Source: Omnitrophica bacterium GWA2_41_15 (GTDB lineage: Bacteria > Omnitrophota > Gorgyraeia > Gygaellales > UBA12090). Taken from it: DNA of 64,000 nt. Positions 2,662 to 41,120 of this stretch are shown piece after piece. The stretch covers positions 128,003 to 192,002 of the forward strand of contig CAKKRH010000001.1 of NCBI GenBank assembly GCA_919902675.1. Direction: 5' to 3'. Within the stretch, counting starts at the first letter, position 1. The number at the start of each line of letters is the position of its first letter. The notes beneath the pieces are model-generated. The model was not told the DNA's origin, made no database searches, and was given only the letters and a program-made list of their open reading frames with translations. Both the position numbers and the translations under genes were made by a program.

Positions 2662-2768
2662 TATTCTCCCCCAGAAAGCGCTTTCCCCAAACTCCTGTTT
2701 TATCCTTATTTTACCCTTATTTATGTGGCATACTTTATATAAGAAGTTATAGCTTCTCTAACAACCAT

Positions 2769-8033: not shown

Positions 8034-8757
8034 TATTACTTTATGCCCCGCATTGCCCGCGCAGTAGCTGTTGGATTACCGCACCATATCACCCAAAGAG
8101 GCAATTACCGCCAGGAGGTGTTTCGTGATGACAACGATAGAAGCCGGTATCTTTCCTGGATCAAAGACTACAGCCTAAAATACCGCCTCTCCATACTTGC
8201 TTATTGCCTTATGCAAAATCACGTGCATTTTATCGCCATTCCCAAAGAAGAAGATTCGCTCGCCAGGACTTTTAATTCTGCCCACATGCGCTACTCCCAG
8301 TACTTTAACAAAAGGATGAAAGCCAGAGGCCATCTCTGGCAGGGGCGTTTTTATTCCTGCATATTAGATGAACCCCGCCTGTTAATGGCATCCAGATACA
8401 TCGAGCGCAATCCGGTGCGCTCAGGGTTAGTGAAAAAACCCTGGGAGTGGCGCTGGTCCAGCGCGCCATACCATACAGGCAGAGAAAACAACCTTCTTAA
8501 TCTTGGGGATTTATTTAAGCTGACGGGTATGTCTTATGATTCCTGGAAGCAGTATATAGACACAAATGAGGAAGAAAAAGCCCTTGAGGCCATAAGAAGC
8601 CATACCTATACAGGCCGGCCCATAGGGTCTATTGACTTTGTTAAGAAGCTGGAAGAGAAATTCGGCAGGAGGCTGTTTGCCTTGCCAAGAGGCAGGCCAA
8701 GGGAAAACCCAGAATAAATGGTCGCTGTCCCTATTTTATGGTCGCTGTCCCTATTTT
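7984..8757 (+). mobile_element. RAYT gene flanked by inverted REP-like 20-mers (REPtron-like unit)
   Basis: AAAATAGGGACAGCGACCAT at 7984-8003. Its exact reverse complement ATGGTCGCTGTCCCTATTTT occurs twice in tandem at 8718-8737 and 8738-8757, bracketing the Y1 transposase gene. Confidence 0.75.
8043..8717 (+). CDS. REP-associated tyrosine transposase (RAYT) / IS200-like Y1 transposase
   Basis: LPHHITQRGN, CLMQNHVHFIAIP (HuH motif), GHLWQGRFYS and YIERNPVR motifs. Confidence 0.85.
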   Translation: MPRIARAVAVGLPHHITQRGNYRQEVFRDDNDRSRYLSWIKDYSLKYRLSILAYCLMQNHVHFIAIPKEEDSLARTFNSAHMRYSQYFNKRMKARGHLWQGRFYSCILDEPRLLMASRYIERNPVRSGLVKKPWEWRWSSAPYHTGRENNLLNLGDLFKLTGMSYDSWKQYIDTNEEEKALEAIRSHTYTGRPIGSIDFVKKLEEKFGRRLFALPRGRPRENPE

Positions 8758-8895
8758 CTATTTTCTATTTTGAAATGCGCAGGAATAATCTATCTTGATA
8801 GGCCCATTGAGTGGGTTGATGAAGCGAAGGGAATCTGCGTTTGCCCTCACTGCGGCGAAAAGGTAAAAGTTAATCTGTAAGAAATACTTATAAAC

Positions 8896-13320: not shown

Positions 13321-14272
13321 GCTTTATGTCGGGGTTTCCCCGCATATTCACAGCCGGGAAAGCGTTTCTAGGGTAATGTGGGCGGTCTGCGTTGCCCTTA
13401 TTCCTTCAGGCTTGGCCGGGGTATTTATCTTTGGCCTCCCGGCTTTAAAGGTTACCCTGATTTCCATAGTAAGTTGTGTCTTTACCGAGGCCCTAATTCA
13501 GAAATCCCGGGGTAAGAAAATAACCGCGGGCGATGGCTCAGCTGTGCTCACCGGGATTTTGCTGGCCTATAACCTTTCCTCAAGCGTTCCCTTTTGGATC
13601 CCTTTGATAGGGGGAGTTTTTGCTATTGCCGTATGTAAACAGGCCTTTGGCGGGTTAGGGGCAAATATTTTTAATCCGGCCCTGGCTGCCCGGGCCTTTT
13701 TACTGGCCTCCTGGCCAAAGCAGATGACCGGGTTTGTCAAACCGTTTAGCTTAGACGCAATCAGTTCAGCCACTCCATTGGCGGTATTGAAAGAACAGAG
13801 TGCTAAAAGTTTATCTGACCTTGGGCTGTCTTACTGGGATTTATTTTTTGGCCGGCGGGGAGGATGCTTAGGAGAGGTCTGCGTTATCGCCTTACTCTTA
13901 GGAGCGGTATATCTTTTATGGAAAGGCTATATCTGGCCTCAGGCTCCGGTGGGGCTTATTTTATCTTTAGGGTTTTTAAGCTGGGTCTTTAGCCCGCGGG
14001 GATTTTTTAAAGGCGATTTTCTCTTCAGCATACTTTCCGGCGGGCTTATCCTGGGGGCGTTTTTTATGGCCACGGATTATGTAACTACTCCCTTGACCAA
14101 AAAGGGCCAATTGGTCTTTGGCCTAGGATGCGGGCTGATCGCCTTTGTTATCCGCAGGTTCGGGGGATATCCCGAGGGGGTATCCTATTCAATCCTGATG
14201 ATGAACGCGGCTGTGCCGTTGATTGATAGATGGGTCAGGCCGAAGAGATACGGAAATAAAGTTGAAAGTTAA
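13310..14272 (+). CDS. rnfD: Rnf complex subunit D
   Basis: VGVSPHIHS N-terminus, polytopic, SSATPL motif, 320 aa, typical RnfD/NqrB family. Confidence 0.88.
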   Translation: MEDKLYVGVSPHIHSRESVSRVMWAVCVALIPSGLAGVFIFGLPALKVTLISIVSCVFTEALIQKSRGKKITAGDGSAVLTGILLAYNLSSSVPFWIPLIGGVFAIAVCKQAFGGLGANIFNPALAARAFLLASWPKQMTGFVKPFSLDAISSATPLAVLKEQSAKSLSDLGLSYWDLFFGRRGGCLGEVCVIALLLGAVYLLWKGYIWPQAPVGLILSLGFLSWVFSPRGFFKGDFLFSILSGGLILGAFFMATDYVTTPLTKKGQLVFGLGCGLIAFVIRRFGGYPEGVSYSILMMNAAVPLIDRWVRPKRYGNKVES

Positions 14273-14368
14273 AAGTAAAAAGTAAAAATTAAAAATTACA
14301 ACGCAAAAATTTAAGATATTTCTTAAGTTTTGAATTGCAGTTTTGACTTTTGACTTTTTAATTTTGAG
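14265..14368 (+). repeat. Heptamer-periodic inverted arrays forming an AT-rich hairpin in the rnfD-rnfE spacer
   Basis: Left arm AAAGTTA AAAGTAA AAAGTAA AAATTAA AAATTAC (14265-14299). Right arm TTTTGAC TTTTGAC TTTTTAA TTTTGAG (14341-14368). The arms are roughly complementary. Confidence 0.7.
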
Positions 14369-14374
14369 TTAATT

Positions 14375-15010
14375 ATGAAGCGTCTTATTAAAGAGTTCAC
14401 GAAAGGTATCATAGTAGAGAATCCTACGTTTGGGCTGGTGCTGGGGTTATGTCCGACCTTGGCGATTTCTATCTCGGTCCGCAATGCCTTGGGTATGGGG
14501 TTGGCCGCTACCTTTGTTTTGGTCTGTTCTAATGTAATAATTTCTTTGGTGCGCAAAGTTATCCCAGACCAAATCCGCATTCCTTGTTTTATCGTGATTA
14601 TTGCTACTTTTGTAACTATTGTGGAGATGTTGATGAAGGCTTATTTTCCGGCTCTGAATGTTTCTTTAGGTATTTTTGTGCCTTTGATTGTGGTTAATTG
14701 CATCGTCTTGGGCCGGGCTGAGGCCTTTGCCTGTAAAAGTCCGGTTCTGCCTTCTCTCTTTGACGGACTTGGGATGGGGATAGGCTTTACCCTGGCTTTG
14801 GTTATTATCGCCTCAATAAGAGAGGTTCTGGGCGCGGGTAAATTTTTAGGTTTTCATTTAATTAAAGGTTTTGAGCCGATCAGAGTAATGGTCCTGGCCC
14901 CGGGAGCCTTATTGACTCTGGGGCTTTTAATCGGTCTGGTTAATTATTGGCATATCAGGAAAAAAACGAATAAAGAAATAAAGAAGGCAGGCTGTGATGG
15001 ATGCAGGTAA
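14375..15010 (+). CDS. rnfE: Rnf complex subunit E
   Basis: ENPTFGLVLGLCPTLA motif; RnfE/NqrD family; 211 aa. Confidence 0.88.
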   Translation: MKRLIKEFTKGIIVENPTFGLVLGLCPTLAISISVRNALGMGLAATFVLVCSNVIISLVRKVIPDQIRIPCFIVIIATFVTIVEMLMKAYFPALNVSLGIFVPLIVVNCIVLGRAEAFACKSPVLPSLFDGLGMGIGFTLALVIIASIREVLGAGKFLGFHLIKGFEPIRVMVLAPGALLTLGLLIGLVNYWHIRKKTNKEIKKAGCDGCR

Positions 15011-15605
15011 ATTTATAGCCATAATCATCTCCACGGTTTTTATCAATAATTTTATCCTTTCCCAGTTTCTGGGATTGTGTTCTTTTATCGGGGTCTCTAA
15101 GGAAACCAAGCCGGCAGTTTCCATGGGCCTGGCGGTTACTTTTGTAACCACAATGTCCAGCCTGATTACCTGGTTAGTTTACCGTTGGCTGTTATTTCCT
15201 TTCGGAATCACTTATTTGCGCACCATATCTTTTATTCTGATTATTGCCAGTTTTGTCCAGTTGGTGGAGATGGTGATTCGTAAGCTTTTCCCTCACCTTT
15301 ACCGGGCTTTTGGAATTTATCTGCCTTTGATTACGGTTAATTGCGCGGTGCTGGGGGTGGCGGTATTAAATTCCCAGGATTTCTTTGTTAACGGTCAGCC
15401 GGTGGCGGGAAGTTTCTGGCTTAGCCTGGCGCAAGGGTTTTTTGCCGGGATAGGTTATCTCTTGGCCATGCTTTTAATGTCGGGAATCCGGGAGCGCCTG
15501 GAGCTGATTGATCCGCCCAAGAGCCTAAGCGGAGTGCCTCTGGCTTTTATTATCGCCTCATTAATGAGCCTGGCGTTTATGGGATTCAGCGGATTTAAGT
15601 TTTAA
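14994..15605 (+). CDS. rnfA: Rnf complex subunit A
   Basis: INNFILSQFLGLCSFIGVS motif; RnfA/NqrE family; 203 aa. Confidence 0.88.
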   Translation: MMDAGKFIAIIISTVFINNFILSQFLGLCSFIGVSKETKPAVSMGLAVTFVTTMSSLITWLVYRWLLFPFGITYLRTISFILIIASFVQLVEMVIRKLFPHLYRAFGIYLPLITVNCAVLGVAVLNSQDFFVNGQPVAGSFWLSLAQGFFAGIGYLLAMLLMSGIRERLELIDPPKSLSGVPLAFIIASLMSLAFMGFSGFKF

Positions 15606-15728
15606 TGACAAAATTCAAAATCCAAAATAAATTTAAAACTTAAATGATAAATTTAAAAATAAAGGTTTTGTGTTTTGTTATTTGATATTTGGATTTATTT
15701 TGTCATTTGTGCTTTGACATTTGTCATT
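15606..15728 (+). repeat. Heptamer-periodic inverted arrays in the rnfA-rnfB spacer
   Basis: Left arm TGACAAA ATTCAAA ATCCAAA ATAAATT TAAAACT TAAATGA TAAATTT. Right arm TTTTGTG TTTTGTT ATTTGAT ATTTGGA TTTATTT TGTCATT TGTGCTT TGACATT TGTCATT. The arms are partly complementary. Confidence 0.7.
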
Positions 15729-21346: not shown

Positions 21347-21413
21347 TTTATAGTTGATAGCAGAAAACGAAAAGTATATTCTGCCATAAACCATAAGCTA
21401 TAAACTATCAACT
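21345..21413 (+). repeat. Heptamer-built hairpin downstream of eno
   Basis: AGTTTAT AGTTGAT AG (21345-21360) pairs with CT ATAAACT ATCAACT (21398-21413) at 14 of 16 positions. Confidence 0.6.
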
Positions 21414-22036: not shown

Positions 22037-23350
22037 ATGATTCCGCGCTACAGCCTTCCTCAAATGTCTGCCGTCTGGCAGGATGAGTCAAAACTCAGCA
22101 AATTTTTAGAAATTGAAGTGCTTACCTGCGAAGCCTACGCCAAATTAGGCAGGATACCTAAGGATGCGGCCGGGAAAATCCGCCGCCAGGCAAAATTTGA
22201 CCTTAAGCGGGTCAATAAGTTAGAGGAAGCCACTCAGCATGATGTGGTGGCCTTTGTCAGTTGCGTGGGAGAATCTTTAGGCCCTTATGCCAAATATCTG
22301 CATATTGGGCTTACCTCCAGCGACCTTCTGGATACTACCTTGGCTTTACAGGCTAAAGAGGCGGCTGAGATATTGATCGAGGATTTAGAGAGACTGCTTA
22401 AAGCCCTGGCTAAGAAGGCCCGTCTTTATAAAGATATGGTCTGTATGGGCCGGACTCACGGGGTGCACGCTGAGCCGACCACCTTCGGCTTGAAGTTAGC
22501 TCTGATGTATGATGAAACCCAGCGTAATTTAGAAAGGCTGAATTGGGAGAAAACGTTTATCTCTGTGGGAAAGCTTTCCGGCGCGGTAGGCACCTATTCC
22601 AATATTGACCCCCGGGTTGAGGCCTATGTTTGTGGTAAGCTAGGCTTAAGGTCAGCTAGGATTTCCACCCAGATTATTTCCCGGGATATTCACGCTGAGT
22701 TTATTAATGTCTTGGCCTTGGTGGGCTCTTCTTTAGAGAAATTCGCCACTGAAATCCGCCATCTCCAGCGCACTGAGGTTTTAGAGGCCGAGGAACCCTT
22801 TGGCCGGGGGCAAAAAGGCTCTTCGGCAATGCCCCATAAGCGCAATCCGGTTATCTGCGAACGTATCTGCGGTTTGGCCAGGATTTTAAGGGCCAATGCC
22901 ATGGCGGCCTTAGAAAATGTGAATCTTTGGCATGAGCGGGACATCAGCCATTCCTCTGCCGAGAGGGTGATTTTTCCCGATTCTACCATTGCCCTGGATT
23001 ATATGCTCAATAAGTTCATTGAGGTAATTGAAGGCCTGAAGGTATATCCGGAGAATATGCTGGAGAATTTGGTCCGCACCAAGGGTTTGATATTTTCCCA
23101 AAGACTATTGCTTATGTTGATGGATAAGGGTTTAAAAAGATCCACAGCCTATGATTTGGTGCAGGTATTGGCAATGAAAAGCTGGAAGGAAAAGCTGAAT
23201 TTCAAGGATTTGGTTTCCCGGGATAAGGGTATTGCTAACTATCTTAACGCCAAAGAGATTGAATCTTGCTTTGAATTGGATTATTACCTGCGTAATGTGG
23301 ATAAGATTTTCAAAAAAATAGGATTGTCTGTTAAAGATGGCGGTATATAA
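22037..23350 (+). CDS. purB: Adenylosuccinate lyase
   Basis: GLTSSDLLDT, MCMGRTHGVHAEPTTFG and SSAMPHKRNP signature motifs. Confidence 0.93.
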   Translation: MIPRYSLPQMSAVWQDESKLSKFLEIEVLTCEAYAKLGRIPKDAAGKIRRQAKFDLKRVNKLEEATQHDVVAFVSCVGESLGPYAKYLHIGLTSSDLLDTTLALQAKEAAEILIEDLERLLKALAKKARLYKDMVCMGRTHGVHAEPTTFGLKLALMYDETQRNLERLNWEKTFISVGKLSGAVGTYSNIDPRVEAYVCGKLGLRSARISTQIISRDIHAEFINVLALVGSSLEKFATEIRHLQRTEVLEAEEPFGRGQKGSSAMPHKRNPVICERICGLARILRANAMAALENVNLWHERDISHSSAERVIFPDSTIALDYMLNKFIEVIEGLKVYPENMLENLVRTKGLIFSQRLLLMLMDKGLKRSTAYDLVQVLAMKSWKEKLNFKDLVSRDKGIANYLNAKEIESCFELDYYLRNVDKIFKKIGLSVKDGGI

Positions 23351-26336
23351 AGTTAAGGTTTTTGATAAACAGGGTGTTTTTGACGCTGTGGGCCAAGGCG
23401 TACTCAGGGATATTCGGGACTTAGGCATAGAGTCTGCCAAAGAAGCGCGTTTCGCCTTTTTGTATTACTTAAGCGGCGATATTGACGAGACGGTAGTCAG
23501 GCGCATCGCTGAGGAACTGCTCATTGACAAAATTACCCAGGAGTATTCCATAGAAAGCAGCCACCGCCAAATGGCGGGGTGCCGCCACGGGCGGCAAGAG
23601 CCGAAAGCCGAAAACCGAGAGTTGATAGAGGTGGCTTATAATTCCGGGGTAATGGATCCGGTTGAGGAGTCGCTTTTAAAGGCGGTCTCGGATATGGGTA
23701 TTTCCGGGCTTAATTCCGCGCGCACTGCCAGGCAGTATATTTTAGAAGGCAGTCTTTCGGATAGAGAGCTAAAGATAATCAGCGAGAAGCTTCTTTATAA
23801 TAAAGTGATTCAGCATATTGTCAAGTCCACAGTCCACAGTCCACAGTCCACAGCTTTGTCCCAAGGTGGATATAAGTTTAAACTGCTTACGATAGATTTA
23901 CTCAAGGCCTCGGATAAGAAACTGTGTCAGATAAGCAGGCAAGGGCAATTATTTTTGAATCTTTCCGAGATGCGCCAGATTAGGGATTATTTTAAGAAAT
24001 TAGGCCGCAAGCCTACAGATGTTGAGTTGGAGACTATTGCCCAGACCTGGAGTGAGCATTGCCGGCATAAGACGTTTAGAGGGAAGATTGAATATGTTGA
24101 AGAAATCCGAAATCCGAAATCCGAAATCCGAAACAAACCCAAAACCCAAAACCCAAAACCCAAAACAAAAATAATAAACAATCTTCTGAAATCCACCATA
24201 ATGAAGGTTACTAAGGAGTTGAATAAGCCCTGGTGCGTTTCGGTGTTTGAGGATAATTCCGGGGTGATTAAGTTTGACGATGAATACAATATCTGTTTTA
24301 AGGTGGAAACGCATAATCATCCTTCCGCGCTTGAGCCTTTTGGCGGGGCCAATACCGGAATCGGCGGGGTAATCCGGGATCCTATGGGGACAGGCCTGGG
24401 GGCCAAGCCGATTTTTAATACCGATGTTTTTTGTTTTGGCCCTCCGGATTATCCCCAGGGTAAACTTTCCCGGGGCGTTCTGCATCCTAAGCGTGTTGCC
24501 AAAGGGGTGGTCAGCGGGGTGCGGGATTATGGTAATAAAATGGGAATTCCCACCATAAACGGAGCGGTTTTGTTTGATCCGGGTTATATTGCCAATCCTC
24601 TGGTATGCTGCGGCACCGCCGGAATATTACCCAAGGATAAATCTTTTAAAAAGGTTTCCAGGGGAGACTTGATTGTGGTAGCAGGCGGCAGGACCGGAAG
24701 AGACGGTATCCACGGGGCAACCTTTTCCTCGGGTGAGCTTACCGAGAAATCAGAAGAGATTTCCGGGGGAGCAGTCCAGATTGGCAATCCCATAACTGAG
24801 AAAAAGGTGCTGGAGGCGCTTTTGCAGGCCCGGGATAAAAATTTGTATTCAGCCATTACTGATTGCGGGGCAGGAGGCTTGTCCAGCGCGGTGGGGGAAA
24901 TGGGGGAGAAGTTAGGCGCGCGGGTAGACTTAGAAAAAGTGCCTTTAAAATACCAGGGGCTTAGTTACGCCGAGATTTGGATTTCTGAGGCCCAGGAGAG
25001 GATGGTTCTGGCGGTGCCTAAAGAAAACATAGATGAGCTTTTAGAATTATGCGCCGGGGAGAATGTTGAGGCTGTGGTGATTGGGGAATTTAGCGGCACT
25101 AAAAAGTTAGAATTGTTTTATCAGGGGAATAAAGTTGGGAATCTGGATACGGACTTTATGCATAACGGCCTTCCCCGGACAATCAAAAAGGCGGTCTGGA
25201 AGCAACTAAGATATCAGGAGCCGGATTTCAACTGTCCTCAGGATTTAACCGAGACCTTAAAGAAGCTTTTAGGCCATTACAATATCTCTTCCAAGGAATG
25301 GGTTATCCGCCAGTATGACCATGAGGTTCAGGGCGGCTCAGTGCTCAGGCCGTTGGTGGGAATTGCCAATGACGGGCCTTCGGATGCCGCCATAGTCAAG
25401 CCTCGCCTGGAAACCGATCGCGGGGTGATTGTTTCCTGCGGGATAAATTTTAAATTCGGACTGATTGACCCTTACTGGATGGCGGCTTCTTCCATCGATG
25501 AGGCCTTGCGCCAGATTATTGCCGTAGGCGGCTCATTGAAAGAAGCGGCTTTATTGGATAATTTCTGCTGGGGCAATCCGGATAAGCCGGACCGGCTGGG
25601 TTCTTTGGTGCGCGCCGCCTTAGGTTGTTATAAAATCGCTAAGGGTTTTGGGACGCCTTTTATTTCAGGAAAGGACAGCCTGTATAATGAGTATTCGGTT
25701 GAGGGAAAATCTCAGGCTATTCCCGGGACACTATTGATTTCCGCGATCGCGGTTATGGATGATGTTACTCAGGCTGTTTCCATGGATGCCAAAAAGGAAG
25801 GAAATTTGATTTATGTTATCGGGGATACCTTTGATGAATTAGGCGGATCGCACTATTTTGATATTTTGGGTTTCATCGGAAATAATGTGCCTAAGGTAGA
25901 TGTGAAAAGAGCGAAACTCCTGATGGAGAGAGTTTCTCTTGCTTCCAGGCGAAGTTTAATTCGAGCCGCCCACGATTGTTCTGAGGGCGGCCTGGCCGTG
26001 GCTTTGGCGGAGATGGCCTTTGCCGGCGGCTTGGGGATGGAGATTTTTCTTAGTGAAGTGCCCTATAGGACAGTCCACAGTCCACAGTCCATAGTCCACA
26101 GTAAAAGAAACGATACAATTTTGTTTTCAGAGTCAAATTCACGGTTCATAGTTGAAGTAGAAAAAAAGAAACAGAAAGAGTTTGAGAAGCTGATGCGCGG
26201 AGTTTCTTGCGGCCTGATTGGCTGTGTGTCCGAGAAAAGATATTTTAAGGTTTACGGCTTGGACAATAAGCCTTGCGTTGAGGCGGATATTTACGATTTG
26301 AAAGAATCCTGGCAGAAGCCATTACGATGGGGGTAA
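23337..26336 (+). CDS. purL: Phosphoribosylformylglycinamidine synthase: tandem PurS-like domains fused to PurL (FGAM synthase II), carrying repeat-derived inserts
   Basis: N-terminal PurS-like MAVYKVKVFDKQGVFDAVGQGV and a second PurS-like NSGVMDPVEESLLKAV block. PurL core motifs WSEHCRHKTF, ETHNHPSALEPFGGANTGIGG and GNPITEKK. 999 aa. Confidence 0.9.
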   Translation: MAVYKVKVFDKQGVFDAVGQGVLRDIRDLGIESAKEARFAFLYYLSGDIDETVVRRIAEELLIDKITQEYSIESSHRQMAGCRHGRQEPKAENRELIEVAYNSGVMDPVEESLLKAVSDMGISGLNSARTARQYILEGSLSDRELKIISEKLLYNKVIQHIVKSTVHSPQSTALSQGGYKFKLLTIDLLKASDKKLCQISRQGQLFLNLSEMRQIRDYFKKLGRKPTDVELETIAQTWSEHCRHKTFRGKIEYVEEIRNPKSEIRNKPKTQNPKPKTKIINNLLKSTIMKVTKELNKPWCVSVFEDNSGVIKFDDEYNICFKVETHNHPSALEPFGGANTGIGGVIRDPMGTGLGAKPIFNTDVFCFGPPDYPQGKLSRGVLHPKRVAKGVVSGVRDYGNKMGIPTINGAVLFDPGYIANPLVCCGTAGILPKDKSFKKVSRGDLIVVAGGRTGRDGIHGATFSSGELTEKSEEISGGAVQIGNPITEKKVLEALLQARDKNLYSAITDCGAGGLSSAVGEMGEKLGARVDLEKVPLKYQGLSYAEIWISEAQERMVLAVPKENIDELLELCAGENVEAVVIGEFSGTKKLELFYQGNKVGNLDTDFMHNGLPRTIKKAVWKQLRYQEPDFNCPQDLTETLKKLLGHYNISSKEWVIRQYDHEVQGGSVLRPLVGIANDGPSDAAIVKPRLETDRGVIVSCGINFKFGLIDPYWMAASSIDEALRQIIAVGGSLKEAALLDNFCWGNPDKPDRLGSLVRAALGCYKIAKGFGTPFISGKDSLYNEYSVEGKSQAIPGTLLISAIAVMDDVTQAVSMDAKKEGNLIYVIGDTFDELGGSHYFDILGFIGNNVPKVDVKRAKLLMERVSLASRRSLIRAAHDCSEGGLAVALAEMAFAGGLGMEIFLSEVPYRTVHSPQSIVHSKRNDTILFSESNSRFIVEVEKKKQKEFEKLMRGVSCGLIGCVSEKRYFKVYGLDNKPCVEADIYDLKESWQKPLRWG
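23824..23853 (+). repeat. 30-nt module (AGTCCAC)4AG, copy 1 (purS2/purL junction)
   Basis: Exact AGTCCACAGTCCACAGTCCACAGTCCACAG, translated KSTVHSPQSTA. Confidence 0.95.
24102..24164 (+). repeat. 63-nt compound heptamer tract inside purL: (GAAATCC)3 GAAACAA (ACCCAAA)4 ACAAAAA
   Basis: Nine consecutive 7-nt units = 21 codons, translated EIRNPKSEIRNKPKTQNPKPKTK. Confidence 0.9.
26072..26101 (+). repeat. 30-nt module (AGTCCAC)4AG, copy 2 (purL C-terminal region), one mismatch
   Basis: AGTCCACAGTCCACAGTCCATAGTCCACAG, translated TVHSPQSIVHS. Confidence 0.95.
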
Positions 26337-26337
26337 G

Positions 26338-26997
26338 ATGATACCAAAACAACTAACCGCTAAAGAGGAATTTACCCACGAAGACCCGTGGCGGATTTTT
26401 AGGATAATGTCGGAGTTCGTGGAGGGTTTTGAGGTTTTATCCGAGGTGGGGGACGCGGTGTCCATATTCGGCTCATCCCGCACTAAACCCAATGATAAGT
26501 ATTACGCCTTAACTGAAGATATCGCCTATCATCTGGCCAAGGCCGGCTATGCCATTATCACCGGAAGCGGGCCCGGAATGATGGAGGCGGCCAATAAGGG
26601 CGCGCGCAGGGCCAAGGGGCATTCCATCGGTTTAAATATTGAAATGCCCAGCGAGCAAAAGTCTAACCGCTACGTGGATACCTTGATAGATTTCCATTAT
26701 TTTTTTATCCGCAAGGTGATGTTTGTCAAATACGCCAAGGCTTTCGTGATTACCCCCGGAGGTTACGGCACCCTGGATGAATTATTTGAGGCCATCAATT
26801 TGATTCAGACTGAACGCATCGGGAAATTTCCGGTAGTTCTGGCCGGAAAAGAATATTGGAGCGGGATACTGCGCTGGCTCAAAAGCACGGTTTTAAAAAG
26901 AGGAAACATTTCAGCCTGCGATTTGGAAATCTTTAAGGTTATTGACGAACCCAAAAAAATCGTCCAATATATTAACAGCTTCTATGGCAAGACCTAA
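26338..26997 (+). CDS. LOG family / TIGR00730-type Rossmann-fold nucleotide-binding protein
   Basis: GSGPGMMEAANKGA and PGGYGTLDELFE motifs. Confidence 0.85.
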   Translation: MIPKQLTAKEEFTHEDPWRIFRIMSEFVEGFEVLSEVGDAVSIFGSSRTKPNDKYYALTEDIAYHLAKAGYAIITGSGPGMMEAANKGARRAKGHSIGLNIEMPSEQKSNRYVDTLIDFHYFFIRKVMFVKYAKAFVITPGGYGTLDELFEAINLIQTERIGKFPVVLAGKEYWSGILRWLKSTVLKRGNISACDLEIFKVIDEPKKIVQYINSFYGKT

Positions 26998-27787
26998 GGT
27001 TTTAGTTTTACGCGCCGCGGGAACTAACTGTGATATGGAAACCGCCTTTGCTTTTTCCCGCGCCGGGGCGGTGGTTGAGCGGGTGCATATCAATCAGCTT
27101 AAAAGCCGCGCCAAAGAGCTTTCGCGATATCAAATCTTGGCTCTGCCCGGAGGCTTCAGCTACGGAGATGACCTTGCCGCCGGAAAAATCCTGGCCAATG
27201 AGTTGAAATATACCCTGGCGGATGCGCTCAGGGATTTTATTAAAAATGGGAAACTGATTATCGGCATCTGCAACGGTTTTCAGATTTTGGTTAAGGCCGG
27301 GCTCTTGCCGGGAAACAGCAATTCAGAGCAAGAGGTAACCCTGACTATTAACGATTCAGGAAAGTTTGAAGACCGTTGGACGTATCTGAAAAGTCCACAG
27401 TCCACAGTCCACAGTCCACAGATTAAATGCGTGTGGATAAGCGGGCTGTCTGAAGTAATCTATCTTCCCGTTGCCCATGGGGAAGGCAAGTTTATGGCCA
27501 AAGATAAAGCAGTTTTGGAAAGATTAGAAAATAATGGGCAGGTGGTTTTGCGCTATTGCGATGAAAAGGGAAATCCCGCGCAATACCCGGATAACCCCAA
27601 TGGTTCAGAAAATGCTATTGCCGGGCTTTCGGATGAGACCGGCAGAATCTTCGGCTTAATGCCTCATCCGGAGCGCCATAGCTTTGGCTGGCAAAATCCC
27701 CGCTGGACGCGCCAGGGTTTAAAAAAAGAAGGCGATGGCCTGCTGATTTTCCGTAACGGAGTAGAATATGCCAGAAAACTCATATAA
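26984..27787 (+). CDS. purQ: Phosphoribosylformylglycinamidine synthase I (glutaminase subunit)
   Basis: VLVLRAAGTNCDMETA, GGFSYGDDL, GICNGFQIL and MPHPER motifs. Start moved to ATG 26984 (MARPKV). Confidence 0.9.
   Translation: MARPKVLVLRAAGTNCDMETAFAFSRAGAVVERVHINQLKSRAKELSRYQILALPGGFSYGDDLAAGKILANELKYTLADALRDFIKNGKLIIGICNGFQILVKAGLLPGNSNSEQEVTLTINDSGKFEDRWTYLKSPQSTVHSPQIKCVWISGLSEVIYLPVAHGEGKFMAKDKAVLERLENNGQVVLRYCDEKGNPAQYPDNPNGSENAIAGLSDETGRIFGLMPHPERHSFGWQNPRWTRQGLKKEGDGLLIFRNGVEYARKLI
27392..27421 (+). repeat. 30-nt module (AGTCCAC)4AG, copy 3 (purQ)
   Basis: Exact 30-mer, translated KSPQSTVHSPQI. Confidence 0.95.
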
Positions 27788-29210
27788 CGACGAGCCGAAA
27801 GAATACTGCGGTTTGTTTGGAATTATGAATCATAGACAGGCCAGTTGGCTTACTTATCTGGGTTTATATGCCCAACAGCACCGGGGGCAGGAGGCCTGCG
27901 GAATTGCCGTAAACAATAATGGAGCGCTCTCTATCCATAAAGGTATGGGGTTGGTCAGCGATGTGTTTGGCGAACAGGTGGTAAACAGTTTGAAAGGAAA
28001 TATGGCGGTAGGCCATGTGCGCTATTCTACCACCGGCTCAAGCATCTTGAAAAATGCCCAGCCGCTGTTGATTGAGTATGCCAAGGGTTCAATCTGTATT
28101 GCCCATAACGGAAACCTGGTGAATTCTTTAGAACTGCGCCAGTATCTGGAAAAAAGAGGTTCAATTTTCCAGACTACCACTGACTCGGAATTGATTATTC
28201 ATTTAATGGCCAGATCCCATTCCCAGGACATCAAAGAAAGCCTGCTGTATGCTTTAAGAAGGGTTAAGGGCGCTTATTCTTTGGTGATGATGAATAGCCA
28301 GTATCTTATCGGTGTCCGGGACCCTTTAGGGTTTCGCCCGCTTTGTCTGGGTAAGCTGGGCCCGGCCTGGTGTTTGGCTTCGGAGACCTGCGCTTTGGAT
28401 TTGATTGGGGCCAAGCTGGTGCGCGAGATTGACCCGGGGGAAATAGTTTTTATCAGCAAAGACGGACTGAAGTCCTTAAGGCCAAAAGAACTACGGCATA
28501 AAAGATACGCCCATTGCACTTTTGAACATGTGTATTTCGCCCGGCCGGATTCTGTGGTATTTGGCGAGACCGTGCATGTGGTCCGGCAGAAATTAGGCGA
28601 GCAATTAGCCAAAGAGCATCCGATAAAAGCGGATTTTGTGGTGCCGGTCCCGGATTCGGGATTTTCGGCGGCCTTGGGATATTCCAAGAGTTCGGGTATT
28701 CCCTTGGAGATGGGAATAATCCGCAACCATTATGTAGGCAGGACTTTTATCCAGCCGGCCCAGGATTCCAGGGAATTAAGCGTCAAGGTCAAATTTAACG
28801 TACTGAAGGATGTGTTGAGGGGTAAGCGTATTGTCATTGTGGATGATTCTATAGTCCGGGGTAATACCTCCAGGATCCGGGTGCGTAATCTGCGCAAGGT
28901 CGGAGTAAAAGAGGTGCACTTGAGGATATCCTGCCCGGCGCACCGCTATCCTTGTTTTTACGGAATAGATTTTCATAAAGCTAATGAATTAATTGCCAAC
29001 AGGTATGAATCCATAGAAAAAATCCGGCAGTATCTGGGCGTGGACAGTTTAGGCTACTTGAGTTTGGAAGGTATGCTGGGTTGTCTAAAACACCCCGTAA
29101 ATCACTATTGCACTGCCTGTTGGACGGGTAAATACCCCCTTACGGCGGAGAAAATGCACGGAAAGTTTTCCCTTGAGGCGCCTTGCTGTGGACAGGAAGA
29201 GACGGTTTAA
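27768..29210 (+). CDS. purF: Amidophosphoribosyltransferase
   Basis: Propeptide then CGLFGI nucleophile; GHVRYSTTG; PRTase motif VIVDDSIVRGNT. Confidence 0.93.
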   Translation: MPENSYNDEPKEYCGLFGIMNHRQASWLTYLGLYAQQHRGQEACGIAVNNNGALSIHKGMGLVSDVFGEQVVNSLKGNMAVGHVRYSTTGSSILKNAQPLLIEYAKGSICIAHNGNLVNSLELRQYLEKRGSIFQTTTDSELIIHLMARSHSQDIKESLLYALRRVKGAYSLVMMNSQYLIGVRDPLGFRPLCLGKLGPAWCLASETCALDLIGAKLVREIDPGEIVFISKDGLKSLRPKELRHKRYAHCTFEHVYFARPDSVVFGETVHVVRQKLGEQLAKEHPIKADFVVPVPDSGFSAALGYSKSSGIPLEMGIIRNHYVGRTFIQPAQDSRELSVKVKFNVLKDVLRGKRIVIVDDSIVRGNTSRIRVRNLRKVGVKEVHLRISCPAHRYPCFYGIDFHKANELIANRYESIEKIRQYLGVDSLGYLSLEGMLGCLKHPVNHYCTACWTGKYPLTAEKMHGKFSLEAPCCGQEETV

Positions 29211-29212
29211 GA

Positions 29213-30199
29213 ATGAAACAAGTAACTTATAAAAAATCCGGGGTTGATATTGAGGAGGCCGGTCGTTTTGTGGAAGCGATCAGGCCGTTAACCCGCGGCA
29301 TCGGCGGATTCGGCGGTTTGTTTAAATTTGATACCAAGAATTTTAAGGAACCGTATCTGGTTTCTTCAACCGACGGGGTGGGGACTAAGCTAAAGATTGC
29401 CTTTTTGGTTGGTAAGCACAATACCGTAGGGATTGATTTGGTAGGGATGAATGTCAATGATATTTTATGCGCCGGAGCCAAGCCTTTGTTTTTCCTTGAT
29501 TATATCGCCTGCGGAAAAATTCAGACAGGCGTCCTGACGGATGTGGTCAAAGGTATTGCCGAGGGTTGCCGCCAGGCCGGCTGTTCTTTGGTGGGCGGGG
29601 AAACCGCCGAGATGCCCGGGTTTTATAAAGAAGGCGAGTATGATTTAGCCGGGTTTTGCGTGGGGGTGGTTGATAAATCAAAGGCTGTCAATGGCTCAAA
29701 AATTAAGGCAGGGGATGTCCTTATAGGGATAGAATCTAACGGCCTGCACTCTAACGGATTTTCTTTGGTGAGAAAAGTTTTTACCAAAAAAGAACTAATA
29801 AAGTATGCTGACGCATTGCTCAAGCCCACCCGCATTTATGTTAAGCCAATTTTATCTTTACTGTCGACTATCGACTGTGGACTATCGACTATTAAAGGCA
29901 TCGCCCACATCACCGGCGGCGCCTTTTACGATAAAATCCCGCGGGTTATTCCAAAGGATTTAGGGATATACATAGACAAAAACAGCTGGCCGGTTCCGGA
30001 AATCTTCCGGCTGATTCAAGAAAAAGGCAATGTCCCGGAAAGCGATATGTACCGCACCCTGAATATGGGAATTGGTATGGTTTTAGCCCTTGAAAAGGGG
30101 AGAGCGGATAAGGTAATGTCCAGACTTAAGAGTTCAGGCCTCAGGTCCTGGGTAATTGGCGAAGTCATTAAGGGTAAAGAGCGGGTTAAAATTATCTAA
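29213..30199 (+). CDS. purM: Phosphoribosylformylglycinamidine cyclo-ligase (AIR synthetase)
   Basis: YKKSGVDIEEA, STDGVGTKL, DLVGMNVNDIL and AHITGGAF motifs. Start moved to ATG 29213. Confidence 0.92.
   Translation: MKQVTYKKSGVDIEEAGRFVEAIRPLTRGIGGFGGLFKFDTKNFKEPYLVSSTDGVGTKLKIAFLVGKHNTVGIDLVGMNVNDILCAGAKPLFFLDYIACGKIQTGVLTDVVKGIAEGCRQAGCSLVGGETAEMPGFYKEGEYDLAGFCVGVVDKSKAVNGSKIKAGDVLIGIESNGLHSNGFSLVRKVFTKKELIKYADALLKPTRIYVKPILSLLSTIDCGLSTIKGIAHITGGAFYDKIPRVIPKDLGIYIDKNSWPVPEIFRLIQEKGNVPESDMYRTLNMGIGMVLALEKGRADKVMSRLKSSGLRSWVIGEVIKGKERVKII
29861..29890 (+). repeat. 30-nt heptamer tract in purM: CTGTCGA CTATCGA CTGTGGA CTATCGA CT
   Basis: Period 7. It contains TGTGGAC, the reverse complement of GTCCACA. 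Translated LSTIDCGLST. Confidence 0.85.
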
Positions 30200-30211
30200 A
30201 GGAGGCGCAAA

Positions 30212-31072
30212 ATGAGTCTATTTTATCTTATTTTTATTGCGGGGATTGTGGTGTTTTTTTCAGGAATCAAGATTGTCCGGCCTACGCATCGCGGATTGAT
30301 TGAGCGTTTAGGCAAATACAACCGTTTTGCCCAGGCAGGGTTTCACTGGATTATTCCTGTAATCGAGCGGTTGTATATGATTAACGTAACTGAACAGATG
30401 GTGGATGCCGAGCCTCAGGAAATTATTACCTTTGATAACCTTAATGCCAAGGTGGATGCCCAGGTGTATTTTAAGGTCAAGCCGGATGAGCAAAGCGTGC
30501 AGAATACTGTTTATAATGTGAACAACTACCAGTGGCAGATAGTAAATCTGGCCCGGACTACCTTAAGAAATATTATCGGCACCCTGACTTTAAAATCCGC
30601 GAACTCCGAGCGTGGTAAAATTAATGATGAACTGCATAAGACGATGATGAGCGAAACTATGCATTGGGGAATTGAGATTGTGCGCACTGAGTTAAAAGAG
30701 ATTGACCCGCCTAAGGATGTTCAGGAGACGATGAATAAGGTAGTCAAGGCTGAGAATGAAAAGATTTCAGCGGTTGACTTTGCCACTGCCACCGAGACCG
30801 TAGCCGATGGGGCGCGCCGGGCCGAGATTAAGAAGGCCGAAGGCGTAAAGCAGGCCAAGATTTTAGAGGCGGAGGGCGAGTCCGAGGCTATCCGGCTGGT
30901 GAATGAGGCCGCGGAGAAATATTTCGTCGGCAATGCCCAGCTTTTAAGAAGACTGCAGATGGCCGAGCGGGCCCTGGAGTCTAATGCCAAAATTATTGTT
31001 CCCTCCAATACCGAATTAGTCAATGTTATCGGAGACTTGGCCGGGGTAGTGCCGATAAAGAAAAGCAGTTAG
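30212..31072 (+). CDS. SPFH/band 7 (stomatin/prohibitin-like) membrane protein
   Basis: N-terminal TM helix, SPFH core (VDAQVYFKV, TLRNIIGTLTL) and an Ala/Glu-rich coiled C-terminus. Confidence 0.85.
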   Translation: MSLFYLIFIAGIVVFFSGIKIVRPTHRGLIERLGKYNRFAQAGFHWIIPVIERLYMINVTEQMVDAEPQEIITFDNLNAKVDAQVYFKVKPDEQSVQNTVYNVNNYQWQIVNLARTTLRNIIGTLTLKSANSERGKINDELHKTMMSETMHWGIEIVRTELKEIDPPKDVQETMNKVVKAENEKISAVDFATATETVADGARRAEIKKAEGVKQAKILEAEGESEAIRLVNEAAEKYFVGNAQLLRRLQMAERALESNAKIIVPSNTELVNVIGDLAGVVPIKKSS

Positions 31073-31102
31073 GCTCAAGCCTTAAGCGGAAATACTTAAA
31101 AG

Positions 31103-32413
31103 ATGAAAATTTTAGTTATTGGTTCAGGCGGCAGGGAGCACGCGATAATCTGGAAGCTTAAGCAGTCTAAATCTTTGCCTGAGATATATTGCGCTCCGGG
31201 TAACGGCGGGATATCCCGCGATGCCCGGATTGTGGACATCCAATCCGATGATATCAAAGGCTTGTTGGATTTCGCGGTAAAGGAAAAAATAGATTTGACT
31301 ATTGTAGGGCCTGAAGCGGCCCTGGCCCATGGAATAGTGGATAGGTTTATGCGTAAAGGCTTAAGTATTTTCGGGCCCACCAAAGAGCTTGCCCTTTTAG
31401 AATCCAGCAAGGCCTATGCCAAAGAAACTATGCGCGGGCTTAATATCCCCACTGCCGGTTTTGAGATTTTTGCTGAACCTGATAAGGCCATAGATTTTAC
31501 TAATAGGCCGCGCCTCTTTGCCGCGCATTATCCGGTAGTAGTTAAGGCTGACGGCCTGGCCGCGGGTAAAGGGGTGGTGATTTGTAAAGACCGTAAAGAA
31601 GCCCAGATAGCTATTGAAGATATGATGGTTAGAAAGGTCTTTGGCCCCGCCGGGACGCGTGTAGTAATTGAGGAGCACCTGGAAGGCGAAGAGGCCTCAA
31701 TTTTAGTGGTTTCCGACGGAATCAATTTTACCGCCTTAGCTTCGGCGCAGGATCATAAGAGGGTCTTTGACCGCGATAAGGGCCCCAATACCGGAGGCAT
31801 GGGGGCATATTCTCCGGCGCCAATAGTAACCCGGGATACGCATAAGCGAATAATGGATCAGGTCATTGAGCCTTTAATTACCGGCCTGGCCAAGGAAGGT
31901 AAGTTTTATAAAGGGATTCTTTATGCCGGGATAATGATTACTAAGCAGGGGCCTCAGGTTTTAGAGTTTAATGTTCGTTTTGGCGATCCCGAGACTCAAG
32001 CTATTTTGCCGCGTTTAAAAACGGATTTAGCGGATTTGTGTTTCGCCTCAATTGAGGATAAGATTGACCGGCTAAAATTAGAGTGGGAAGAAAAATCAGC
32101 TGTCTGCGTGGTTTTGGCCTCTGGAGGCTACCCCGGGGATTATCAGAAAGGTCTTGAGATTTCCGGCTTAGAGGATGCCGATACTTTGGCTGATGGAGAT
32201 TCCCACATCTTTCATGCCGGCACCGCGATTAGTCCACAGTCCACAGTCCACAGTCCACAGTTTGTTACTGACGGGGGACGCGTGTTGAATGTAGTGGGTT
32301 TAGGGGATACTATTCGTCAGGCGGCGCAGAAGGCTTATAAGATAGCCGGTAAAATTAAGTTTGATAAGATGCATTACCGTAAGGACATCGCCCACAGGGC
32401 GCTTAAAAGTTAG
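31103..32413 (+). CDS. purD: Phosphoribosylamine-glycine ligase
   Basis: MKILVIGSGGREHA, VVKADGLAAGKGV, GPNTGGMGAY and GGRVLNV motifs. Confidence 0.93.
   Translation: MKILVIGSGGREHAIIWKLKQSKSLPEIYCAPGNGGISRDARIVDIQSDDIKGLLDFAVKEKIDLTIVGPEAALAHGIVDRFMRKGLSIFGPTKELALLESSKAYAKETMRGLNIPTAGFEIFAEPDKAIDFTNRPRLFAAHYPVVVKADGLAAGKGVVICKDRKEAQIAIEDMMVRKVFGPAGTRVVIEEHLEGEEASILVVSDGINFTALASAQDHKRVFDRDKGPNTGGMGAYSPAPIVTRDTHKRIMDQVIEPLITGLAKEGKFYKGILYAGIMITKQGPQVLEFNVRFGDPETQAILPRLKTDLADLCFASIEDKIDRLKLEWEEKSAVCVVLASGGYPGDYQKGLEISGLEDADTLADGDSHIFHAGTAISPQSTVHSPQFVTDGGRVLNVVGLGDTIRQAAQKAYKIAGKIKFDKMHYRKDIAHRALKS
32231..32260 (+). repeat. 30-nt module (AGTCCAC)4AG, copy 4 (purD)
   Basis: Exact 30-mer, translated ISPQSTVHSPQF, between FHAGTA and VTDGGRVL. 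Confidence 0.95.
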
Positions 32414-40361: not shown

Positions 40362-40392
40362 TTGACAAAGGTTAGCAAATTTGCTAACCTTT
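40362..40392 (+). promoter_or_regulatory. Promoter -35 box plus perfect 26-nt palindromic operator of the TA module
   Basis: TTGACA at 40362-40367, overlapping AAAGGTTAGCAAA|TTTGCTAACCTTT (40367-40392). Confidence 0.6.
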
Positions 40393-40408
40393 GTGTGAGA
40401 GGCGATGT

Positions 40409-40816
40409 GTGGCAATTCCAAAGAAAGAAGAATACATTTTCTATCAGGGAGAGAAGTTTCAAGTAGAGTTTTATTTTACTGTGGCAGGAAAGATGCCTGC
40501 TAAAGAGTGTTTGGAAGAGACGGCTTTAGATGTAAAAGTAAAACTGGCTACTCTGGTAAAATATATGGCAGAGCAGGGCAAGATTTTCGATATAACAAAA
40601 TTTAGAGTGGTGGATTCTAAAGAAAAAATCTATGAGTTTAAGCCTTTGCAATATCGTTTTTTTAATTTTTTCTATGAAGGAAGAAAAATAATCATTACCA
40701 GCGGCTATATGAAAAAATCTCAAAAGGTGAGTGGAAAAGATTTAGAAAGAGCCAGAGAGATAAAGAGAGATTATGTTTATAGAGTAAAAGGGGGTAGTTA
40801 TTATGGAAAAGAATAA
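40409..40816 (+). CDS. Type II toxin, RelE/ParE superfamily (Gp49/HigB-like)
   Basis: KIYEFKPLQYRFFNFFYEGRKIIITSGYMKKSQK is typical of the Gp49-like family. GTG 40409 behind GAGAGG chosen as start. Confidence 0.75.
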   Translation: MAIPKKEEYIFYQGEKFQVEFYFTVAGKMPAKECLEETALDVKVKLATLVKYMAEQGKIFDITKFRVVDSKEKIYEFKPLQYRFFNFFYEGRKIIITSGYMKKSQKVSGKDLERAREIKRDYVYRVKGGSYYGKE

Positions 40817-41120
40817 AACATATATGGATAAGTTAATGACCGAAAAAGATTTTCGGGAAAAGTTTGATCAGAAATACCAGAATCTTTGTATCGCGGAGCA
40901 GATTGCCCAGGCGCGTCATCAGGCGCATTTAACTCAATCCGAGCTGGCTAAGCGAATCCATACCACTAAATCGGCTATCTCTCGTTATGAAAGCGCTGAT
41001 TACGATAAATACGGGATTACACTCTTAACTAGAATTGCCAAGGCCTGTGGAGCAGATTTAAAAATAATTTTTGTTACTTCTAAGCATATAAAGAATGGCC
41101 ATCGTTTTGCTGCCGTTTAA
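40803..41120 (+). CDS. XRE-family HTH antitoxin (HigA-like)
   Basis: HLTQSELAKRIHTTKSAISRYES helix-turn-helix. Overlaps the toxin stop by 14 nt. Confidence 0.78.
   Translation: MEKNKTYMDKLMTEKDFREKFDQKYQNLCIAEQIAQARHQAHLTQSELAKRIHTTKSAISRYESADYDKYGITLLTRIAKACGADLKIIFVTSKHIKNGHRFAAV

Follow-up and report, generated by a model that had tools for sequence, protein, structure and literature searches.

The short tandemly repeated repetitive (STRR) sequences of heterocystous cyanobacteria are built from seven-nucleotide units, CCCCAGT, TTGGTCA and CAACAGT. Coding minisatellites and low-complexity loop insertions evolve by replication slippage, and their unit length is usually a multiple of three. 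Rickettsia palindromic elements (RPEs), reportedly described by Ogata et al. in 2000 as in-frame selfish DNA in protein-coding genes, are palindromic sequences of 100-150 bp with a hairpin; they occur in many unrelated housekeeping genes, where they lie in surface segments and leave the host protein intact. Here we describe tandem heptanucleotide arrays that lie in frame within purine biosynthesis enzymes of Omnitrophica bacterium GWA2_41_15. The DNA analysed, called the window below, is a stretch of 64,000 nucleotides (assembly GCA_919902675.1, contig CAKKRH010000001.1, positions 128,003 to 192,002 of the forward strand), and the repeat of main interest is the 30-nt array (AGTCCAC)4AG, found four times in its pur cluster, once with a mismatch.

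Heptanucleotide repeats were reported to be the most abundant class of long simple sequence repeats (SSRs) in most surveyed prokaryotic genomes, and polymerase slippage was put forward as an explanation (Mrazek 2007, as cited in PMC4679880). Repeats of TAACTGA are found in Beggiatoaceae, cyanobacteria and Bacteroidetes (MacGregor 2015, PMC4679880). Both kinds of repeat, STRR and TAACTGA, lie almost entirely between genes; the few copies within open reading frames (ORFs) are at protein ends or in hypothetical proteins (PMC4679880). In Haemophilus, Neisseria and others, SSRs in coding regions are phase-variable contingency loci (PMC2651432).

One would expect essential genes to be free of SSRs whose unit is not a triplet, yet here a whole phylum tolerates 7-nt arrays in core purine enzymes at fixed places. 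The reading frame imposes a visible rule on these arrays, with length steps of seven residues and a peptide that is independent of frame, and one unit spreads among the loops of a genome. Literature searches for the AGTCCAC sequence, its peptide, and heptamer repeats in Omnitrophota or in coding regions found nothing relevant, and no description was found of conserved in-frame heptamer slots, of length quantisation in steps of seven residues, or of genome-specific sharing of units among enzymes. The behaviour of in-frame heptamer arrays described here therefore seems to be new.

Heptanucleotide arrays in the purine biosynthesis cluster

The 30-mer AGTCCACAGTCCACAGTCCACAGTCCACAG, that is (AGTCCAC)4AG, has three exact matches on the plus strand of the window (23824-23853, 27392-27421 and 32231-32260), and a fourth plus-strand copy at 26072-26101 has one C>T mismatch; the chance expectation for the 30-mer is 0 (100 shuffles). 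Tandem Repeats Finder assigns the four tracts a period of 7 and 4.3-4.7 copies. Intact plus-strand ORFs enclose all four copies in frame, and the encoded peptides are KSTVHSPQSTA, TVHSPQSIVHS, KSPQSTVHSPQI and ISPQSTVHSPQF. These positions and peptides agree with a preliminary description of the window, made from the sequence alone, which had placed the copies in purL, purQ and purD. The sites were correct, but its purL is a purS-purL fusion and it left further heptamer arrays unlisted. When the window was scanned at lags of 4-12, arrays appeared at lag 7 only, five of the six inside the pur cluster. Arrays of the AGTCCAC family and three further arrays of the window all lie within ORFs. The host genes and their arrays, which occupy positions that we call slots, are the following.

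23337..26336, plus strand: purS-purL fusion gene, 999 aa, four slots
23597..23620, plus strand: slot in the PurS-PurL fusion linker, short array of about (AGCCGAA)3, reads QEPKAENR
23824..23853, plus strand: slot purL-a, (AGTCCAC)4AG, in the N-terminal linker region of PurS-PurL, reads KSTVHSPQST
24102..24166, plus strand: slot hept2 of PurS-PurL, double array (GAAATCC)4.6 + (AAACCCA)4.6, reads EIRNPKSEIRNKPKTQNPKPKTK
26070..26102, plus strand: slot purL-b, AGTCCAC array with one C>T, near the PurS-PurL C terminus, reads TVHSPQSIVHS
26984..27787, plus strand: purQ, 267 aa from the ATG at 26984, one slot
27392..27421, plus strand: PurQ slot, (AGTCCAC)4AG, between FEDRWTYL and KCVW, reads SPQSTVHSPQ
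29183..30199, plus strand: purM, one slot
29860..29892, minus strand: PurM slot, decayed array, AGTCGAT AGTCCAC AGTCGAT AGTCGAC AGT on the minus strand, translated LSTIDCGLSTI
31103..32413, plus strand: purD, 436 aa, one slot
32231..32260, plus strand: PurD slot, (AGTCCAC)4AG, between FHAGT and VTDGGRVL, reads SPQSTVHSPQ

Pfam finds PurS, FGAR-AT linker and AIRS domains in the fusion protein, and the order of the operon is purB, purSL, LOG-family gene, purQ, purF, purM, SPFH gene, purD, purE. The purM array holds the only other AGTCCACAG 9-mer within the 64 kb and is an inverted and diverged fifth member of the AGTC family.

The four AGTCCAC copies have the same register and the same length. 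Their flanks share no sequence, and a comparison of the flanks found neither a target-site duplication nor terminal inverted repeats. Because 7 and 3 are coprime, a heptamer array encodes one cyclic seven-residue peptide in every frame, which for AGTCCAC is S-P-Q-S-T-V-H in the sense direction and V-D-C-G-L-W-T in the antisense direction. The copies are read in different phases, as the preliminary description pointed out, but this is an arithmetic consequence of the coprimality and is uninformative. The frame is preserved only when three units are gained or lost (21 nt, seven codons), and a change of one unit causes a frameshift.

The best protein matches to the window bear the names Omnitrophica or Omnitrophota, and its own PurD, PurQ and PurL are recorded at NCBI under a 'Candidatus Omnitrophota bacterium' MAG (metagenome-assembled genome), which holds MEK6563554/56/60. 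Seven contigs from metagenomes of Hainich groundwater encode the PurD protein of the window. Four of the seven were compared, including short-read contigs, one 2.15-Mb long-read contig (contig_28 of ERZ1286166) and one 3.5-kb contig that spans purD only. They are 99.8-99.9% identical to the window, and wherever an array could be found in them it matches in both length and sequence; in one contig a differing flank prevented one slot from being placed. The long-read contig has frameshift errors elsewhere, its arrays being intact. No variation in copy number was seen at the arrays among these four assemblies, which are consensus sequences about 0.2% diverged from the window. Short tandem repeats can be mis-assembled, but an assembly or sequencing artefact is practically ruled out by the same arrays in four independent assemblies, short-read and long-read, and by the orthologous arrays of relatives from other samples and studies.

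In the proteins, the arrays are insertions in variable loops of PurD and PurQ. The PurD loop FHAGT-VTNGGRVL exceeds that of Yersinia PurD by five residues (3mjf, with E. coli 1gso giving a similar score), as the preliminary description had estimated, and the PurQ loop is four residues longer than in the PurL glutaminase domain of Salmonella. Against array-free homologs the net loop gain is about 5-7 residues and not 10. An AlphaFold2 model of PurD has a mean predicted local distance difference test (pLDDT) score of 90.5 and places the insert between two strands, in a block with pLDDT 80-86. The model of PurSL (pLDDT 61) is too poor for structural conclusions, and its slots fall in segments below 50 or in parts that cannot be aligned to solved PurL.

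Conserved slots and length classes

Alignment of PurD, PurSL and PurQ, each with 120 homologs that come almost entirely from Omnitrophota, revealed six hypervariable places: the PurS-PurL linker, purL-a, hept2, purL-b, one PurQ loop that follows FEDRW.YL and one PurD loop, FHAGT-GGRVL. Together, PurSL, PurQ, PurM and PurD of Omnitrophota have about seven conserved slots, which are probably surface loops or linkers. The slots in most lineages consist of 7-nt-periodic DNA with many different units, and many lineages hold a short base state in them. The slot peptides are periodic over seven residues and varied (STVHSPQ, RDEGRGT, KSQKSKV, SQVTGHR, SPVTSHQ and others), ranging across relatives from neutral and S/T/P-rich to strongly charged or basic. 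Self-match of residues at lag 7 is 0.10-0.35 in the slots, whereas other lags, and PurL outside the slots, give about 0.06. The hept2 peptide is identical in P0132 (70% identity) and nearly identical in four other homologs, and STVHSPQ also occupies the PurQ slot of homologs with 64-80% identity.

Slot lengths fall into classes spaced by about seven residues, which corresponds to 21 nt or three units. The classes are 5-6, 12-13 and 19-21 residues for purL-b; 8, 14-15, 21-22 and 28 for the PurD slot; 10, 16-17 and 23 for hept2; 7, 14-15, 21-22 and 29 for the purS linker; and 4-6, 11-13 and 18-22 for the PurQ slot. The purL-a slot has classes of 9, 16 and 23-24 residues plus one of 12-14, and in most of the 120 homologs it is 16 residues long regardless of the unit. 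Spacing by seven residues indicates that the arrays are translated, because removal at the RNA level would permit any multiple of 7 nt; it is the signature expected of a 7-nt repeat that changes its copy number under the constraint of the reading frame. The preliminary description had argued that a fixed length implies either a discrete module or selection on length. Selection on frame is borne out by the seven-residue steps, whereas the length of the module is not fixed, since 131 AGTCCAC arrays of other genomes span 21-96 nt.

Turnover of units among relatives

The contents of the slots were compared in DNA of relatives, whose loci are designated L. In L120, with 75-80% amino acid identity to the window, the purQ array has the site and length of the window array with two synonymous changes, purL-b reads AGTCCAC AGTCCAC AGTCAAT AGTCAAT with four changes and the T variant in common with the window, and the purD 30-mer is present, cut exactly mid-way by a 24-nt insert. 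The AGTCCAC copy at purL-a is limited to the window lineage, the slot holding GCGATAC at the same slot length in L120, CCAGAAA in L242 and GACGAGG in L128. In the purD slot, L127 (59% PurD identity) has (GGTCCAC)4AG in the phase and length of the window, with A>G in all four units, and L019 (about 58%) has a perfect AGTCCAC array in the same loop with a shifted phase; L125 and L242 have no array there. The purM slot is filled by perfect CTATCGA (L242), perfect CTATCCG (L125), CTATACG/CTAAACG (L019) or perfect GCTGTCA (L130), and these four arrays are in register, with one to three positions differing in every unit. The differences in purD and purM are concerted changes of the unit at a fixed slot length.

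Other differences are of another kind. Descent of units in phase was rejected for purL-a, the purD slot of L126 and the purS linker of L129, since only two or three of seven positions match; these are replacements and not drift. (AGTCCAC)4AG has newly colonised two slots at unchanged slot length, purL-a of the window and the purS linker of L129. The latter holds the exact 30-mer at a place where L128 has GACGAGG and L242 an AACAGAG array of about 70 nt.

Turnover is also visible at close range. Over purSL, purQ, purM and purD, L242 is about 90% identical to the window, yet AGTCCAC arrays are missing from all of its slots: other units occupy the purS linker, purL-a and purL-b (AAAGGCA in the last), purQ is in the short base state, and purD is without an array. 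The purQ of L243 (89%) carries a perfect (ACAGCCG)4.7 and is exactly 21 nt longer than that of L242. Across relatives of 88-90% identity the PurQ slot holds TCAAAAA, ACAGCCG or the short base state. Alleles of PurD with and without an array fall in a single 90%-identity cluster, PurQ alleles with 8, 11 and 15 slot residues coexist in another such cluster, and KRAESKIE and KTADSRQPTADSKIE are found in one 90%-identity cluster. The comparison with sister genomes that the preliminary description called for shows the same slots with AGTCCAC, with other heptamer units or with none.

Several insertions within arrays were also observed. The hept2 slot of L242 keeps the two arrays of the window, each split by a GC-rich palindrome of about 20 nt. 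This palindrome, CCTGCCTGCCGGCAGGCAGG, has seven occurrences in the fetched loci and none in the window: two in hept2 of the L242 purSL, and one each at L129 2184-2203, L130 10768-10787, L130 16889-16908, L126 6129-6148 and L013 5603-5622. Four of the seven lie inside a purSL slot, three of these splitting a heptamer array and one lying between degenerate repeats. The coding copies are in frame (CLAGRQA, PACRQAG, CLPAGR), and many PurL and PurD homologs hold similar peptides; the remaining three copies are intergenic, including one in a MAG of Chitinophaga. From its sequence and sites the palindrome looks like a second, hairpin-type mini-insertion that targets arrays. The 24-nt element CCCNNCGACTRCGCTCRGGGCAGG (peptide PRLRSGQA; L120 8541-8565) divides the purD 30-mer of L120 into equal halves, and it recurs at L128 14607-14631, in the purQ-purF spacer, between two half-arrays of that genome's own unit GACGAGG.

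The purL-b slot of L129 (purSL, locus 1700-4666) has an array of period 8, CAAGGTCA x4 over 36 nt, in place of the period 7 and 33 nt of the window. One extra base, giving 8 nt, is present in three of its four full units, and the frame is kept; this is another case of units altered in concert. Four arrays of period 8 were found in purSL genes overall.

Sharing of units within a genome

One unit per genome tends to recur in several slots. In the window, AGTCCAC fills four slots, with the inverted purM copy in addition. L128 carries GACGAGG in five slots (purS linker, purL-a, purL-b, purQ and purM) and in an intergenic spacer, L242 has AACAGAG/CCAGAAA in common between two slots, L166 has AGCGACG in both purSL and purQ, and L130 has GCTGTCA in purM and in an intergenic array. 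That intergenic and coding arrays share units in L128 and L130 indicates a process at the level of DNA. Counting units as shared when they differ by at most one mismatch in any rotation or on either strand, array pairs share a unit in 13.7% of cases within a locus and in 2.9% between loci (91 arrays, 89 loci; Fisher P = 3e-9); without the window, the within-locus value is 16.3%.

Distribution beyond purine genes

A 21-mer search found (AGTCCAC)3 or longer at no fewer than 119 loci in many phyla. Hosts confirmed with NCBIfam are HisF, PheT and TsaD, all in Omnitrophota, and LeuRS, LpxB, GatA, PolA, ThiC, DnaE and SbcD. The preliminary description had proposed a fixed module recurring in one pathway, which does not hold, given the same repeat in these proteins and the other units, or no array, in the pur slots of relatives.

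Fifty-five of the 131 AGTCCAC arrays lie in sense ORFs and 27 in antisense ORFs (ORFs of at least 150 aa). When stop-free units are ranked on a disorder scale, the sense peptide reaches the 85th percentile and its antisense counterpart the 15th; the greater tendency of the sense peptide to disorder fits the sense bias. An explanation of AGTCCAC as the unit with the most benign peptide was rejected, since SPQSTVH reaches merely the 85th percentile of stop-free units; the idea covers the sense bias and not the choice of unit. Nor is AGTCCAC specially favoured or spreading horizontally as a unit: in viral contigs, control heptamers of matched composition occur at 16 and 4 loci and AGTCCAC at 11. 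Since the controls are similarly common, the spread of AGTCCAC across phyla is most simply convergent and generic.

In LeuRS of four Verrucomicrobia MAGs (L059, L065, L095 and L115) an AGTCCAC array lies in frame at one site common to all four, after HLAEELWEKL where that motif is visible. It makes a second conserved slot, in another phylum and another enzyme. In L112, nucleation of an array by a tRNA T-loop (GGTTCAAGTCC...) was considered and rejected, as ARAGORN finds no tRNA with the array present or removed.

Comparison with described repeats

The pur arrays resemble heptanucleotide SSRs and STRRs in their head-to-tail 7-nt units, their shortness (2-6 copies being typical), the reuse of a favoured unit and their scattered phylogeny. 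A rotation of AGTCCAC, CCACAGT, has the NNNCAGT form of the cyanobacterial units CCCCAGT and CAACAGT, so that the kinship with STRR-type heptamers suggested in the preliminary description is reasonable. The window also has AT-rich intergenic arrays like the known intergenic heptamers. Copy number differs by whole units between related genomes, as in SSRs, here in steps of three units, with no difference among the assemblies of 99.8% identity. Unlike strict STRRs, the arrays are hosted by Omnitrophota and not by heterocystous cyanobacteria, with the unit CCACAGT; and unlike STRR and TAACTGA repeats, they occupy mid-protein positions in essential enzymes, in orthologous slots that a phylum has conserved, with 21-nt quantisation of length and a genome-specific unit shared among slots.

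With the Rickettsia RPEs they have in common repeated DNA in frame in many unrelated housekeeping genes with the ORF intact. The RPEs differ from the pur arrays, which are direct tandem repeats of 21-50 nt that change in length by whole units and in unit concertedly. Coding minisatellites are similar in their concerted units, rapid turnover and location in disordered loops, whereas here the 7-nt unit forces a step of 21 nt, or seven residues, and a peptide independent of frame.

Proposed mechanism

We think it probable, though well short of assured, that the four 30-mers are translated heptanucleotide SSR arrays, driven by slippage and selected for frame, with copying between neighbouring arrays. 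This reading is based on the translation-compatible frame, the conservation of slots, the 21-nt quantisation, the concerted unit changes, the rapid turnover and the within-genome sharing of units described above; from these we infer slippage as the motor, the copying mechanism and the neutrality of the peptide. The arrays would occupy old, hypervariable slots of PurS-PurL, PurQ and PurD, with an inverted and decayed relative in PurM. Changes in length by slippage would be filtered by selection to multiples of three units, and the 30-nt length in the window would be explained by selection holding discrete lengths (a core of about 9 nt plus three units). In the manner of an accordion, an array may contract to about one unit and then re-expand by slippage, which would keep the units identical, change the unit in all copies together and turn over the content of a slot quickly. 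Units would further be copied among nearby arrays of a genome, with template switching or short-tract conversion as the probable route, and this would bring the same 30-mer into several genes of one operon. Copying is favoured over four independent origins by the common register and length of the four copies. The array peptide is most likely a tolerated spacer.

Several observations weigh against slippage with frame selection and copying. No length variant was seen among the four assemblies about 0.2% diverged, so that slippage is not directly observed, and an array with four units is a short one where high rates of slippage are concerned. Slippage in its simple form cannot put one unit into four loops, and the copying step that is needed is itself inferential. 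The replacement by an unrelated unit at unchanged slot length, at purL-a and at the purS linker of L129, has no worked-out mechanism. The distribution is patchy, with three of the four window arrays common to L120 at 75-80% identity and missing in relatives at 88-90%. Between the window and L120, identity is 90% over the four orthologous arrays and 74% over the genes, and at third positions it is 79% compared with 52% (P = 2e-4), an excess of conservation that a purely neutral accordion does not predict. Coding arrays are also 5.6-fold enriched in purSL, purQ, purM and purD (40 in 334 kb, compared with 15 in 699 kb of the other coding sequence of the same Omnitrophota pur loci; P = 1e-9). In more distant loci of the Joint Genome Institute (JGI) there are 14 coding arrays in these genes and 12 elsewhere, about 2.5-fold with sequence length roughly estimated. 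In the four best-studied loci no array was found in other genes of the cluster or its flanks (purB, purE, purN, LOG, SPFH, sua5, rpiB, glyA and others, where present). This preference for four genes may not be fully explained by permissive loops.

If general, such arrays would offer bacteria a cheap route for making and remodelling loops and linkers, and would let enzymes that are conserved elsewhere vary very fast at particular places. They would call for caution when sequences of uncultured lineages are aligned, used for phylogeny or strain typing, or taken as primer targets, and would provide a natural system in which slippage, template switching and frame selection can be measured, each slot recording its own history.

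Alternative explanations

The four copies could instead be four insertions of a discrete mobile mini-element, a 30-nt module placed at permissive sites by a dedicated enzyme, which we regard as unlikely. Such an element would account for the like register and length of the window copies and for the exact (AGTCCAC)4AG in another slot of L129, in L015, in L093 and in PheT of L023, an Omnitrophota MAG. Of 60 isolated arrays from various phyla, 28 begin at AGTCCAC, the preferred start, with CACAG or CACAGTC as preferred ends, and short GC palindromes do insert into heptamer arrays. The preferred ends are equally expected, however, from expansion between AG..AG or AGTC..AGTC microhomologies. The four window copies have no flank similarity and, unlike miniature inverted-repeat transposable elements or small insertion-sequence derivatives, neither terminal inverted repeats nor target-site duplications, and array length elsewhere varies from 21 to 96 nt. 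The net loop gain of about 5-7 residues instead of 10, the unit-wide substitutions at fixed phase in orthologous arrays, and the many other units that show the same behaviour in the same slots also speak for SSRs. Of the roles suggested in the preliminary description, a mini mobile element tolerated in loops nevertheless comes closest in its second part. Quite improbable, in our estimation, is a functional tag, that is, a cis-acting nucleic-acid site or a peptide tag that co-ordinates the purine enzymes through co-regulation of mRNAs or co-assembly of PurL, PurQ, PurM and PurD. The concentration of coding arrays in purSL, purQ, purM and purD, with none in purB, purE, LOG and SPFH of the four best-studied loci, would suit a tag, as would the tendency of one unit per genome to fill several of these enzymes and the conservation of array nucleotides between the window and L120 beyond synonymous expectation. 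It is opposed by the other units, unit mixtures or lack of arrays in relatives of 88-90% identity, by slot peptides that vary from neutral and S/T/P-rich to strongly charged or basic, by intergenic arrays with the same units, and by the AGTCCAC repeat in unrelated housekeeping proteins of other phyla. At the RNA level, no common fold of the arrays with their flanks was found (z = -0.4, -1.95, -1.8 and +1.4), and a search of the 30-nt arrays for self-complementary or palindromic structure found none. Rfam gave no family at the arrays, its only matches in the window being three tRNAs elsewhere. A conserved orthologous element or known family, as would characterise a cis-regulatory RNA, is thus lacking, L242 being without AGTCCAC in all slots at 90% identity, and the shared cis-RNA site proposed in the preliminary description is unlikely.

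Phase variation would make the arrays contingency switches: slippage by one unit would toggle purine genes, possibly in a host-dependent organism, and selection for switching would keep the arrays perfect. Heptanucleotide SSRs do drive phase variation in Haemophilus (PMC2651432, PMC8262952). The pur arrays are likewise non-triplet SSRs inside ORFs in which a one-unit change alters the frame, and old arrays remain perfect and conserved at synonymous positions. We nonetheless give this explanation very little credence. Wherever an assembly spans a slot, the allele is the in-frame one of 30 nt, with no length polymorphism in the population consensus, and no out-of-frame allele was found in about 360 homologous proteins, although protein searches would mostly miss frameshifted genes. 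The arrays lie mid-gene or near the 3' end and away from the 5' end, several per gene and with only about four units; many lineages are in the short, non-slippery base state; and the hosts are genes of central metabolism and not surface or restriction genes. A broader doubt is whether the sharing of units in one pathway is a by-product at all. A directed "painting" of loops, a homotypic tag of PurL, PurQ, PurM and PurD, or slippage-prone control points could each produce it, and the conservation above synonymous expectation, the 5.6-fold enrichment and the exact 30-nt replacement at unchanged slot length leave some room for them; we hold a reading of this kind to be unlikely as well. Regulatory, phase-variation and protein-tag roles are unsupported, and slippage under frame selection, with copying, is the account that we retain.

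Other features of the window

The pur operon includes a LOG-family (PF03641) gene at 26338-26997 and an SPFH/Band-7 gene at 30212-31072. Both embedded genes and the purS-purL fusion recur in several of the fetched Omnitrophota loci.

The AT-rich intergenic heptamer arrays of the window are at 8748-8774, 14258-14365, 15609-15728 and 21386-21413, with the units CTATTTT, AAAGTTA, TTTTGAC, CAAAATC, TTTGTCA and ATAAACT. Two of these array groups flank the genes at 14375-15605. The arrays resemble the intergenic heptamers found upstream of genes in other phyla.

A Gp49-like/helix-turn-helix (HTH) gene pair that resembles a toxin-antitoxin system lies at about 40391-41100 in the window (19307-20018 in L121) and at 18245-18959 in L242. 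The pair is placed differently in the window and in this 90% relative, in a region that is otherwise syntenic.

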